64,000 bases of DNA from Escherichia coli (GCF_003334405.1 NZ_QOWM01000008.1), one strand, 5' to 3'. Counted from the first letter of the stretch, positions 5,362 through 41,606 are shown. Notes: a model not told the origin generated them from the sequence alone. A program made the numbers and translations.

Positions 5362-5391
5362 AATAAGGGCTGACAGTTGTCAGCCCTTTTT
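5362..5391. terminator. Bidirectional rho-independent terminator between convergent oppF and yciU
   Basis: Hairpin aagggctgaca-gt-tgtcagccctt flanked by A-run upstream and T-run downstream. Confidence 0.55.
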
Positions 5392-8858: not shown

Positions 8859-9157
8859 TGATACCTCTGTAACCACAATTTTGTTTAATTATCTTAGCGT
8901 GCACATTTTCTGAACATACATGCAGCGCGTGAATGTGTTAAACAATAGTAGATGACTTTATCCGCAGTAATCAAAGGATTTGAGCGAGCAACTGTACCTC
9001 AGGAAAGGTCATTTTTCCTGAATATGCTCACATCATATAAAGAAATACAGATAAAGTTATTATCTGCTTGTGGTGGTGAATGCACTGACCGGCTATAAGG
9101 AAAGGCCAAACAAGAACACGGTTGCAAAAACCGTGCCCTTAAATATTGAATCTCTAT

Positions 9158-9454
9158 TCAGAACACTTTCTTAAATGGTTTCACTGAAACGTGTTCATAG
9201 ACTCCTGCCGCTACGTACGGGTCAGCATCGGCCCAGGCCTGAGCTGCTTCCAGCGATTCAAATTCAGCAATAACGGTTGAGCCAGTAAATCCCGCAGCCC
9301 CTGGATCGTTACTGTCTACCGCTGGCATTGGACCAGCTGTCAACAAACGACCTTCATCATGCAGTAACTGTAAACGTGCTAAATGTGCCGGACGAACGGA
9401 AAGGCGTTTTTCGAGGCTATCAGCTTTGTCTTGAGCGTAAATAACATACAACAC
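9158..9454 (-). CDS. yciI: YciI-like protein (Dabb-type small protein), GTG start
   Basis: ORF 9158-9550 minus; GGAG Shine-Dalgarno 8 nt upstream of GTG at 9452-9454 gives the 98-aa form. Confidence 0.85.
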
Positions 9455-9609
9455 GGGCACAACTCCTTGTTCGGGAAAGTTGTAAAGTACGTTATTTGAA
9501 AGGGCGAAGATCTGCAACGGAAAGATGATGTCTTTGTTAAGGCCATGCATAAAGTAAGGGTAATTACGCCAAAAATGACATTTTCACTGATCCTGATCGT
9601 CTTGCCTTA

Positions 9610-9640
9610 TTGAATATGATTGCTATTTGCATTTAAAATC
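9610..9640 (+). promoter_or_regulatory. tonB promoter region with Fur-box-like AT-rich dyad (tgaatatgattgctatttgcatt)
   Basis: Partial match to Fur consensus GATAATGATAATCATTATC about 40-65 nt upstream of tonB ATG; tonB is classically Fur-repressed. Confidence 0.4.
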
Positions 9641-9677
9641 GAGACCTGGTTTTTCTACTGAAATGATTATGACTTCA

Positions 9678-10397
9678 ATGACCCTTGATTTACCTCGCCG
9701 CTTCCCCTGGCCGACGTTACTTTCGGTCTGCATTCATGGTGCTGTTGTGGCGGGTCTGCTCTATACCTCGGTACATCAGGTTATTGAACTACCTGCGCCT
9801 GCGCAGCCGATTTCTGTCACGATGGTTACGCCTGCTGATCTCGAACCGCCACAAGCCGTTCAGCCGCCACCGGAGCCGGTGGTAGAGCCAGAACCGGAAC
9901 CTGAGCCGATCCCCGAACCGCCAAAAGAAGCACCGGTGGTCATTGAAAAGCCGAAGCCGAAACCTAAGCCAAAACCGAAGCCGGTGAAAAAGGTACAGGA
10001 GCAGCCAAAACGCGATGTCAAACCCGTAGAGTCGCGTCCGGCATCACCGTTTGAAAATACGGCACCGGCACGCCTGACATCAAGTACAGCAACGGCTGCA
10101 ACCAGCAAGCCGGTTACCAGTGTGGCTTCAGGACCACGCGCATTAAGCCGTAATCAGCCGCAGTATCCGGCACGAGCACAGGCATTGCGCATTGAAGGGC
10201 AGGTTAAAGTTAAATTTGACGTTACGCCGGATGGTCGCGTGGATAACGTACAAATCCTCTCAGCCAAGCCTGCGAACATGTTTGAGCGTGAGGTGAAAAA
10301 TGCGATGCGCAGATGGCGTTATGAGCCGGGTAAGCCAGGCAGTGGGATTGTGGTGAATATCCTGTTTAAAATTAACGGCACCACCGAAATTCAGTAA
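9678..10397 (+). CDS. tonB: Energy transducer TonB
   Basis: 239 aa from ATG 9678; N-terminal anchor, (EP)n and (KP)n proline-rich repeats. Confidence 0.95.
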   Translation: MTLDLPRRFPWPTLLSVCIHGAVVAGLLYTSVHQVIELPAPAQPISVTMVTPADLEPPQAVQPPPEPVVEPEPEPEPIPEPPKEAPVVIEKPKPKPKPKPKPVKKVQEQPKRDVKPVESRPASPFENTAPARLTSSTATAATSKPVTSVASGPRALSRNQPQYPARAQALRIEGQVKVKFDVTPDGRVDNVQILSAKPANMFEREVKNAMRRWRYEPGKPGSGIVVNILFKINGTTEIQ

Positions 10398-10403
10398 GCA
10401 GAA

Positions 10404-10435
10404 AGTCAAAAGCCTCCGACCGGAGGCTTTTGACT
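10404..10435. terminator. Bidirectional rho-independent terminator between convergent tonB and yciA
   Basis: 32-nt perfect palindrome agtcaaaagcctccgaccggaggcttttgact directly after tonB stop. Confidence 0.75.
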
Positions 10436-10436
10436 A

Positions 10437-10835
10437 TTACTCAACAGGTAAGGCGCGAGGTTTTCCTTCAGGATCAACCGCGACATACTTAAATAATGCT
10501 TCTGTCGCTTTATAGCGTTGCCCAATTGGTTCAGACGCTACTTTTTTCACCCACACTTCAATATTAATGCTGACCGATGTCGTCCCTTTCTGGACACAGC
10601 GTGCATAGCAGCACACCACATCGCCGACCGCAACCGGCCGTAAGAAAGTCATTCCTTCAACCCGCACAGTCACTACGCGACCGTGGGCAATTTCTTTTGC
10701 CAGAATAGCGCCGCCAATATCCATTTGTGACATTAACCAACCACCAAAGATGTCACCATTGGCATTGGTATCGGCGGGCATGGCTAAAGTACGTAAAACA
10801 AGATCGCCCTGAGGGACGTTATGTGTTGTAGACAT
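10437..10835 (-). CDS. yciA: Acyl-CoA thioesterase YciA (hotdog fold)
   Basis: 132-aa ORF. Confidence 0.92.
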   Translation of the reverse strand: MSTTHNVPQGDLVLRTLAMPADTNANGDIFGGWLMSQMDIGGAILAKEIAHGRVVTVRVEGMTFLRPVAVGDVVCCYARCVQKGTTSVSINIEVWVKKVASEPIGQRYKATEALFKYVAVDPEGKPRALPVE

Positions 10836-10939
10836 GGTAAAACCGACTTAAAAGGAAAATCACAGGCGCGATGCTACTATGATTTTCCTGAGGAGAACAG
10901 AGGAGATACAGCGCCAGCCCCGAAGGACTGGCAGTCTGG

Positions 10940-11479
10940 TTAGGATTTATCTTCCTGCGGCATGTGGCGGTAGATATAGATACCGCTTAACAATGTGAAG
11001 ATTAAGGTAAGGGCGGTCAGGCCAAAGACTTTAAAGTTGACCCAAATATTTTGCGGCAGCCAGAATGCGATGTAGATGTTTGCCAGACCGCAAAGGATAA
11101 AGAAAACAGCCCAGGCCAGATTCAGCTTCGACCATACCGGTTGCGGCAGCGTGAGTTCTTTACCCAGCATCCGCTGAATTAGCGGCTTTTTCATCACCCA
11201 TTGGCTGACTAACAGGGCTCCCGCAAATAGAGCATAAATGACTGTAACCTTCCATTTAATAAACTCATCATTGTGGAAGAACAGCGTCAAGCCACCGAAG
11301 ACGACCACCAGAACAAAAGTGATCAGGGCCATCTTCTCAACCTTACGAAAGCGAACCCAGCTATAGATAAGCACAATCGCCGTGGCGACGATCAGCGCCG
11401 CAGTAGCCGCATAGATGTCATAAATCTTGTAAAACGCGAAAAAGACAACCAGCGGTAAAAAATCAAGAAACTGCTTCAT
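10940..11479 (-). CDS. yciB: Inner membrane protein YciB (intracellular septation protein family)
   Basis: 179-aa ORF, multiple TM helices. Confidence 0.92.
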
Positions 11480-11508
11480 TTTACGATTCCGTAATCAAAT
11501 GCTTAAGG

Positions 11509-12252: not shown

Positions 12253-12446
12253 GCACTCTCCTTGAGTTTTATGCAGGTGTTAATTAGCGGGCAATTGTAC
12301 CCTGGTTAAGCCTCGGGTGGCAGCATCAGGTCTTGTATGGAAAAGCATATCTTTGTAAAGCGGAGGTAATTGCTGGCCTTCAGGCATGGGCAAATCGCGG
12401 CAAGTGGCGACCGAGTTAATATTTGCGTAGCGAAAATATTTAAAAA

Positions 12447-23334: not shown

Positions 23335-25230
23335 ATGGCAGGGAAGTTTCGCTGCATTTTGCTGTTGATAGCAGGGCTGTTTGTATCATCTCTAAGTTAT
23401 GCAGAAAACACGGAGATCCCTTCTTATGAAGAAGGGATCTCGCTCTTTGATGTTGAAGCCACTCTGCAACCAGATGGGGTGCTCGACATCAAAGAAAATA
23501 TTCATTTTCAGGCGCGAAATCAGCAGATTAAGCACGGCTTTTATCGTGATTTACCACGACTATGGATGCAGCCTGATGGGGACGCTGCACTGCTGAACTA
23601 TCATATTGTTGGCGTCACCCGTGATGGTATTCCTGAACCCTAGCATCTTGACTGGCATATCGGGTTAATGAGTATTGTCGTGGGCGATAAACAACGTTTC
23701 TTGCCTCAAGGCGACTATCATTATCAAATTCATTATCAGGTTAAAAATGCTTTCCTGCGTGAGGGGGATTCTGATCTGCTAATCTGGAACGTGACCGGTA
23801 ACCACTGGCCGTTTGAAATTTATAAGACCCGTTTTTCTCTCCAGTTCTCTAATATTGCGGGTAATCCATTTAGCGAAATCGATCTCTTTACCGGAGAAGA
23901 GGGCGACACATATCGTAATGGCCGCATCCTTGAGGACGGAAGAATTGAATCCCGCGATCCGTTTTATCGTGAAGATTTCACGGTCCTCTACCGCTGGCCT
24001 CACGCTTTACTTAGCAATGCCTCGGCTCCGCAAACGACGAATATTTTCAGCCATCTTCTTTTACCCTCCACGTCATCGTTGTTAATTTGGTTTCCGTGTC
24101 TGTTCCTGGTTTGTGGATGGTTATATCTCTGGAAGCGCAGGCCGCAATTTACGCCGGTAGATGTGATTGAAACCGATGTCATTCCGCCAGATTACACGCC
24201 CGGCATGTTACGTCTCGATGCGAAGCTAGTTTACGACGATAAAGGTTTTTGTGCCGATATCGTAAATCTGATTGTGAAAGGAAAAATTCATCTGGAAGAT
24301 CAGTCTGACAAGAACCAGCAAATCCTGATTCGTGTTAATGAAGGCGCGACCAGAAATAATGCGGTATTACTGCCCGCAGAGCAGTTATTACTGGAAGCGT
24401 TATTTCGTAAAGGCGATAAGGTCGTTCTTACGGGGAGACGCAACAGAGTCTTACGCAGGGCATTTTTACGGATGCAGAAATTTTATCTGCCGCGTAAAAA
24501 GTCTTCGTTTTACCGGTCTGATACTTTTTTGCAATGGGGTGGACTGGCAATATTGGCGGTCATTCTTTACGGTAACTTGAGTCCTGTAGGCTGGGCAGGA
24601 ATGAGTCTGGTGGGCGATATGTTTATTATGATCTGCTGGATTATTCCTTTTTTATTTTGTTCCCTTGAGCTTTTGTTTGCCCGCGATGATGACAAGCCTT
24701 GCGTTAATCGTGTAATCATCACTTTGTTTTTACCACTGATTTGTTCAGGCGTGGCCTTCTATTCTCTCTACATCAATGTCGGAGATGTATTCTTTTACTG
24801 GTATATGCCAGCGGGTTATTTTACCGCTGTTTGCCTGACCGGTTATCTCACTGGCATGGGGTATATTTTTCTGCCAAAGTTTACCCAAACTGGACAGCAA
24901 CGTTATGCCCACGGTGAAGCTATCGTTAACTATCTTGCGCGTAAAGAGGCAGCAACACACAGTGGACGTCGGCGGAAAGGGGAAACACGGAAACTGGATT
25001 ACGCGTTGCTAGGTTGGGCTATATCGGCAAATTTGGGGAGGGAATGGGCGTTACGCATTGCCCCTTCGCTTTCTTCGGCGATTCGCGCTCCAGAGATTGC
25101 CCGTAACGGCGTTTTATTCTCATTACAGACGCACCTAAGTTGCGGGGCCAATACCAGTTTGTTGGGGCGAAGTTATTCCGGTGGTGGTGCTGGCGGCGGC
25201 GCGGGTGGCGGAGGCGGTGGTGGCTGGTAA
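23335..25230 (+). pseudogene. yciQ: DUF2207 membrane protein YciQ interrupted by one in-frame TAG at 23641-23643
   Basis: Track ORFs 23335-23643 (102 aa) and 23668-25230 (520 aa) are in the same frame, separated only by the TAG plus 8 sense codons; 102+1+8+520 = 631 codons; signal peptide only in the N-fragment. Confidence 0.6.
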
Positions 25231-41578: not shown

Positions 41579-41606
41579 AAAGCCACGGATATATCCGTGG
41601 CTTTCG
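41579..41606. terminator. Bidirectional terminator between convergent yciH and osmB
   Basis: aagccacggata / tatccgtggctt perfect palindrome with flanking A and T runs. Confidence 0.6.

Follow-up and report, generated by a model that had tools for sequence, protein, structure and literature searches.

The promoter and Fur site of Escherichia coli tonB, the repeats coding for its proline-rich spacer, and the terminator that it shares with an opposing gene have been known since the 1980s and 1990s and are textbook material, published by Postle & Good (1983, 1985) and Young & Postle (1994). In Fur ChIP-seq, tonB is listed with the operons that Fur not only binds but also regulates (PMC4676285), and the gene is included in the Fur-2 iModulon. 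At the other end of the unit, the title of Postle & Good 1985 (Cell 41:577) calls the terminator lying between tonB and the gene opposed to it bidirectional and rho-independent, and the tonB terminator is in use as a standard terminator part. The finding described here is therefore nothing new, and the initial annotation of this DNA, which called all of these known tonB features, is borne out by the published record. The practical value of the analysis lies in exact coordinates for each tonB element within the window, by which we mean the whole 64-kb stretch of DNA that was analyzed. Identity, anatomy, conservation, and covariation were determined in this analysis, while Fur binding, the transcription start, and two-way termination come from the literature.

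We are almost certain that the locus is the chromosomal tonB transcription unit of K-12-type E. coli, behaving as published. Over positions 9500 to 10500 of the window (1001 nt), K-12-type E. coli chromosomes were 100% identical, and 5423 of 5426 complete E. coli genomes carried this segment, annotated tonB/yciA. In the RefSeq annotation of the identical ER1709 record, the genes run yciI (minus strand), tonB (plus strand), and yciA, yciB, and yciC (minus strand). yciA is the last gene of the yciC-yciB-yciA run, with its stop codon at 10437-10439 on the minus strand. The yciI-tonB intergenic region is 223 nt long, and a divergent yciI was found upstream of tonB in all 26 orthologous loci. The three genes of immediate concern are as follows.

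9158-9454, minus strand: yciI, the divergent upstream neighbor, 98 aa (RefSeq annotation; NCBIfam NF008473, 183 bits)
9678-10397, plus strand: tonB coding sequence, 239 aa plus a TAA stop at 10395-10397 (translation, RefSeq annotation, and NCBIfam NF008083)
10437-10835, minus strand: yciA, a convergent acyl-CoA thioesterase gene (RefSeq annotation; NCBIfam NF007970, 285 bits)

Some E. coli genomes had up to 4 places matching a 1-kb tonB query, and 13 of the 5682 matching places were on records classed as plasmids. Two genomes had an insertion sequence at the locus. In MC4100_0.1s (L044), a culture grown with 0.1 uM antibiotic, a 768-bp IS1A lay inside the region for the TonB C-terminal domain at the equivalent of window positions 10334-10342, with a 9-bp target duplication (GCCAGGCAG); WP7-S17-ESBL-04 had an IS1 in the tonB region as well. 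IS1 insertions at tonB probably reflect selection for losing TonB-dependent uptake. Beyond the far end of the opposing genes, between yciC and ompW, the fragment of a YkgJ-family cysteine-cluster protein is annotated as a RefSeq pseudogene at window positions ~12280-12369 (from L001:5781-5870).

Promoter and Fur site

Between positions 9400 and 10900, a promoter scan returned a single sigma-70-like match, consisting of TTGAAT and TAAAAT separated by an 18-nt spacer. From this match we infer that transcription starts near 9646, a few bases 3' of the -10 hexamer. A 256-aa reading frame opening at TTG 9627 was rejected as an artifact of ORF listing; its start would fall within the promoter, upstream of the -10 hexamer. 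The elements of the region are as follows.

9604-9641, plus strand: conserved promoter/operator block, defined by alignment and containing the Fur footprint at 9605-9637
9610-9615, plus strand: -35 hexamer TTGAAT (promoter scan)
9634-9639, plus strand: -10 hexamer TAAAAT (promoter scan)

The Fur footprint at tonB has been reported at NC_000913 1309040-1309072 (Chen et al. 2007, PMC2189734, Table 3). Counted from the tonB start codon at 1309113 (Shultzaberger et al. 2007, PMC1807945), the protected stretch corresponds to window positions 9605-9637, which take in the -35 hexamer with its spacer and the greater part of the -10 hexamer. Shultzaberger et al. also located a pair of Fur walkers, of 8.7 and 11.5 bits, on top of the RNA polymerase site; one of the pair competes with the -35 walker (PMC1807945). 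No footprinted Fur site in the published list carries less information than that of tonB, at 11.5 bits (PMC2189734). The initial annotation had proposed footprint or ChIP data as the check on its Fur site, and both kinds of published data agree with it: the footprint falls on 9605-9637, and tonB is bound and regulated in ChIP-seq.

We scored the DNA against the 19-bp Fur consensus GATAATGATAATCATTATC and also as a 7-1-7 motif, as an array of four hexamers, and as an internal dyad. The best consensus match near the promoter was 12/19 at 9612, accompanied by 11/19 at 9606 and 10/19 at 9618, so that the matches follow a 6-nt periodicity; together they extend over 9606-9635 and cover both promoter hexamers and the spacer between them. 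A score of at least 12/19 was reached at 105 positions in the 64-kb window. Two adjacent 7-1-7 matches of 9/14 each, at 9611 and 9617, ranked in the top 0.36% of window positions, and both the internal dyad symmetry (6/9 pairs) and the best four-hexamer array ranked in the top ~1%. A+T content was 76% in the 33-nt block at 9605-9637 versus 50% for the window. By themselves, such sequence statistics would not establish a Fur site; the 12/19 match is not distinguishable from chance. The AT-rich Fur-like dyad that had been noted over the tonB promoter is indeed AT-rich, overlaps the promoter, and coincides with the footprint, but "dyad" is a loose description for a site with 6/9 symmetric pairs and a 12/19 consensus match. 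Among footprinted Fur sites, the tonB box ranks with the weakest, and it hardly qualifies as a dyad.

Conservation set the region apart more clearly. From tonB loci retrieved for 36 species, we took 24 and aligned the 140 nt that precede the start codon. The segment CTTATTGAATATGATTGCTATTTGCATTTAAAATC, including its 18-nt spacer, was nearly invariant in 22 enterobacterial genera. Across 23 to 24 loci, the mean majority fraction was 0.95 to 0.97 in the promoter block (0.97 in the footprint) versus 0.52 in the 64 nt upstream (9540-9603). The Fur site is thus more conserved than the adjoining noncoding DNA, which is randomized just upstream. We take the Fur site as real because of this conservation across genera together with the published footprint. 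More generally, a real, footprinted Fur site can escape consensus matching statistically and yet stand out by cross-genus conservation.

The block might instead be conserved merely as a promoter, or for another regulator such as a second, upstream-acting factor of anaerobic repression, with Fur playing a minor part. The weak consensus match, the poor dyad symmetry, and the bottom rank of tonB among the listed footprinted sites would all suit such a reading, and the title of Young & Postle 1994 invokes a second factor. However, the published DMS footprint and the conserved block coincide within 1 to 4 nt, ChIP-seq found Fur binding together with regulation at tonB, and the 18-nt spacer shows an invariance that promoters do not ordinarily need. 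Moreover, the DNA upstream, to which the second factor is said to bind, shows no conservation. We regard a minor role for Fur as highly improbable.

In the reading that we favor, transcription of the short leader and of tonB (239 codons) would start from the TTGAAT-18 nt-TAAAAT promoter. Fur loaded with iron would bind the AT-rich array of degenerate hexamers at 9605-9637 and, when iron is sufficient, would keep RNA polymerase off the tonB promoter. A site this weak would fit modest repression, not on/off control. One locus departed from the pattern: in Enterobacter sp. BIGb0383 (L022:1363-1503), tonB with its divergent yciI had neither the promoter/Fur block nor the conserved leader described below, and tonB regulation may differ in this strain.

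Leader, TonB protein, and spacer repeats

Just 5' of the start codon, the leader sequence ATTATGACTTCAATG was conserved to a degree resembling that of the promoter. The features of the leader and coding region are as follows.

9659-9677, plus strand: conserved distal 5' leader TGAAATGATTATGACTTCA, majority fraction 0.89-0.95, with in-frame ATGs at 9663 and 9669
9774-10148, plus strand: Pfam TonB_N (PF16031), the polyproline region, aa 33-157, E=1.1e-37
9885-9908, plus strand: (Glu-Pro)4 codon repeat, GAGCCA GAACCG GAACCT GAGCCG, followed by IPEP to 9920
9948-9983, plus strand: (Lys-Pro)6 codon repeat (TRF period 6, 6 copies, 76% matches, score 44)
10155-10367, plus strand: Pfam TonB_C (PF03544), the C-terminal domain, aa 160-230, E=5.8e-20

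Three in-frame ATGs open the E. coli gene, at 9663, 9669, and 9678, the last being the annotated start. ATG 9663 is ACG in most genera; ATG 9669 and its 9-nt distance to the annotated ATG were invariant in 22 genera. The substitutions found between 9669 and 9678 were ACT to ACC or ACG, TCA to TCG, and TCA to GCA (Ser to Ala), three of the four being synonymous in frame, a codon-position pattern with an estimated chance of ~0.2 and numbers too small for significance. In Serratia and Rahnella, tonB starts at an ATTATG aligned with E. coli 9669, which precedes the annotated start by 9 nt, and in three NCBIfam TonB models the N terminus was offset by +3 residues. These observations raise the possibility, which we consider unlikely, that translation of TonB in E. 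coli and its relatives starts wholly or partly at ATG 9669, three codons earlier, giving a predicted 242-aa protein beginning MTSMTLDL. If so, TonB residue numbering would shift by three. The conserved leader could instead serve ribosome binding or translational control or act as a regulatory element, and no clear Shine-Dalgarno sequence was seen within 9659-9677. Alternatively, it may be a second, unfootprinted Fur-like site, as a 12/19 consensus match at 9665 suggests. The 1983 tonB sequence paper is said to have noted alternative starts giving 239 to 244 aa, and Postle & Skare 1988 (J Biol Chem 263:11000) reportedly includes an analysis of the TonB N terminus; a literature search on N-terminal sequencing of TonB returned nothing usable.

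Judged by its translation, the identity of the gene as tonB is certain. The product scored 538 bits against the NCBIfam TonB equivalog NF008083 (cutoff, 448 bits), with residues 1-239 aligned to model positions 1-239, and it was identical to the solved TonB chains 9ddo_F, 2grx_C, and 1u07_A, the first of which spans residues 1-239. Structures 1u07, 1ihr, 2grx, and 2gsk have been solved for the TonB_C region. Within the N-terminal anchor PTLLSVCIHGAVVAGLLYTSV, the translation contains S16, H20, L27, and S31. In the TonB literature, these four residues on one helix face characterize the membrane anchor, and insertion into the membrane is predicted. The protein would accordingly be laid out as an N-terminal membrane anchor, a rigid proline-rich spacer, and a C-terminal domain contacting outer-membrane transporters.

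The (EP)n and (KP)n repeats that the initial annotation placed at the DNA level in 9880-9990 were both present and were perfect as protein, but as DNA they were imperfect. Pairwise identity between 6-nt units was only 75% in the EP array and 81% in the KP array because synonymous codons alternate, and the longest perfect period-6 run was 14 nt. At a minimum score of 30, TRF reported the KP array alone and did not report the EP array. Across 26 orthologues, the longest run had 2 to 6 units for EP and 3 to 8 units for KP, which indicates that unit number changes over evolutionary time. The alternation of synonymous codons in the spacer restricts perfect DNA repetition, and copy number nonetheless drifts between genera.

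Length variation was also seen within E. coli. Strain Ecol_448 (L043) carried a 238-aa tonB allele, WP_001357407.1, that lacks Gln107 (VQEQ to VEQ) and differs from the window by T51A and L133P too, with unchanged numbers of EP and KP units. Repeat slippage was ruled out as the origin of this allele, since the missing residue is Gln107 and not an EP or KP unit.

The terminator shared with yciA

The 39-nt gap between the tonB and yciA stop codons is filled by a palindrome.

10404-10435, no single strand assigned: shared bidirectional intrinsic terminator, a 15+2+15 inverted repeat with core AAAAGCCTCC-GACC-GGAGGCTTTT

It consists of two 15-nt arms (10404-10418 and 10421-10435) of 100% complementarity with 2 nt between them, so that 30 of the 32 positions are symmetric and only the central AC is not. 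The palindrome is separated by 6 nt from the tonB stop on one side and by 1 nt from the yciA stop on the other. The claim of a 32-nt palindrome after the stop, common to convergent yciA, was confirmed in these terms, the arms being perfect and the central AC lying outside the symmetry. No longer perfect short-range inverted repeat occurs in the 64-kb window, and by our own arithmetic ~5e-4 such repeats would be expected by chance. Further short-range inverted repeats were found at 5362-5391 and 23406-23448, and a perfect 26-nt true palindrome at 41579-41604 (AAAGCCACGGATA/TATCCGTGGCTTT) looks like another A/T-flanked terminator.

When folded as RNA, either strand formed a 14-bp stem with 7 GC pairs and a 4-nt loop at -23.5 kcal/mol. 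The fold z scores for the two strands were -8.1 and -7.2, and none of 200 shuffled sequences folded as well. Read on either strand, the core, AAAA-GCCTCC-GACC-GGAGGC-TTTT, gives a GC-rich hairpin and, 3' of it, a short U-run. The sequence 3' of the GC core, TTTTGACT, has 5 T in 8 positions, a short run in which TTTT is followed by GACT. A scan for terminators picked out the minus strand, with the stem complete. The fold predicted for the yciA strand also included a weak outer helix of 6 pairs, G-U pairs among them, joining 10438-10443 to 10395-10400, both of which are stop-codon regions. Cambray et al. (2013) found that the minimal tonB terminator was weak and that a version with 30 nt of context performed better, and they proposed a nested outer structure; the outer helix predicted here fits that proposal for the extended tonB terminator. 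The hairpin alone may not account for the full termination efficiency.

Among other genera, ten loci with a convergent yciA had a gap of 26 to 48 nt containing a single hairpin. All ten had a 3' T-run, and most, though not all, had a matching 5' A-run. The stems themselves differed among genera (e.g., GCCTC, TCTCCC, and GGTCGC). In an alignment of 11 sequences, 8 of 13 stem pairs had changed on both sides while keeping their pairing, although some of these stems may be replacements and not homologous drift. The terminator has kept its architecture, with compensatory substitutions altering its sequence. In E. albertii, Kluyvera, Pluralibacter, Cedecea, and others, the gene downstream of tonB was not yciA.

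The form and conservation of the hairpin bear on how the two transcripts end. Termination could depend mainly on Rho, or on head-on collisions of convergent RNA polymerases, leaving the palindrome as a pause or stability element; the short U-run and the weakness of the minimal tonB terminator in a reporter (Cambray et al. 2013) are compatible with such a role, and the literature contains a proposal that polymerase collisions assist bidirectional termination where E. coli genes converge. Yet collision-type terminators are described as unlike intrinsic ones, which the tonB terminator resembles: its form is canonical on both strands, where a loop of 4 nt closes a GC-rich stem and T occupies 5 of the 8 nt that follow the core. 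The compensatory changes that maintain the stem, and the word "rho-independent" in the title of Postle & Good 1985, point the same way, and we judge termination mainly by Rho or collision to be very unlikely.

A different explanation would make the palindrome a dispersed repetitive element of the REP/BIME kind or a palindromic protein operator. The Citrobacter loci (L004-L006) could be read in that direction, as their tonB-yciA gap of 68 to 87 nt holds longer GC-rich palindromes, GCCGGATG...CATCCGGC, that were judged REP-like by eye only. In 5313 E. coli genomes, however, the 44-nt segment around the hairpin had a median of one locus per genome, the two matching places per genome being the two strands of the same palindrome, and we rejected a REP element on this copy number. 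A/T runs of the kind typically seen at terminators also border the palindrome, and from genus to genus its stem keeps the same shape while varying in sequence. The probability that it is a repetitive element or an operator is close to nil. A permissive Rfam scan of positions 9000-11500 found no RNA family and returned only a chance miRNA match inside yciA (E=0.69).

As an intrinsic terminator, the palindrome would end transcription of both tonB and the opposing yciC-yciB-yciA run at one GC-rich hairpin. The A-run before it and the T-run behind it would give the RNA of each strand a stem-loop followed by a U-run, making termination bidirectional and factor independent.

Of 5423 E. coli genomes, 3267 matched the 44-nt hairpin segment (10398-10441) exactly, and about 2070 had 1 to 2 differences. 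The five variants that we read (L038-L042) carried G10401T, which lies outside the stem, and/or C10434T, and one of them (L040) also diverged from 10436 onward. These variants indicate that the "perfect" palindrome is an allele and not a fixed property. C10434T, a common E. coli allele, affects the second outermost pair, which becomes G-U in the tonB RNA and a C-A mismatch in the yciA RNA. In terms of predicted pairing, it is an asymmetric weakening of the bidirectional hairpin, and the mismatch that it leaves on the yciA strand suggests that the outer four pairs are not strictly required.

One record labeled E. coli, SCPM-O-B-8794 (L002:2225-2260), combined C10407T with G10432A and a loop change; the two stem substitutions together keep Watson-Crick pairing on both strands. 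This compensated 44-nt haplotype was absent from all 5426 complete E. coli genomes, and the record probably belongs to a neighboring Escherichia lineage outside the sampled population. We therefore do not claim a compensatory pair segregating within E. coli.

Comparison with described systems

The elements of the unit can be set beside their described relatives one at a time. In the strong Fur operators (fepA-fes, cir, fhuF, and entC), an AT-rich array of overlapping, 6-nt-spaced sites lies over the promoter hexamers, as it does in tonB, and this shared placement suggests repression by occlusion. The difference is one of strength: tonB has 11.5 bits, whereas most other footprinted sites have 17 to 23 bits.

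The TonB proteins of Serratia, Rahnella, and Pantoea share the three-part layout of E. coli TonB, EP and KP runs included, and their genes likewise have a divergent yciI upstream. In contrast to this shared layout, their identity to E. coli TonB is 43 to 54%, with fewer repeat units.

The tonB-yciA terminators of the Enterobacterales resemble that of E. coli in having one hairpin between convergent stops, followed by a T-run. The E. coli version has an A/T run of 4 nt only, extended by AGTC/GACT, whereas many relatives have 6 to 7 A/T. The Citrobacter gap, in turn, is without the simple A/T-flanked hairpin of E. coli.

The closest described system is the tonB locus of E. coli K-12 (Postle & Good 1983, 1985; Young & Postle 1994). 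It is identical to the window over 1001 nt and has the same neighbors, yciI and yciA. We detected no difference between the two, and they are the same locus.
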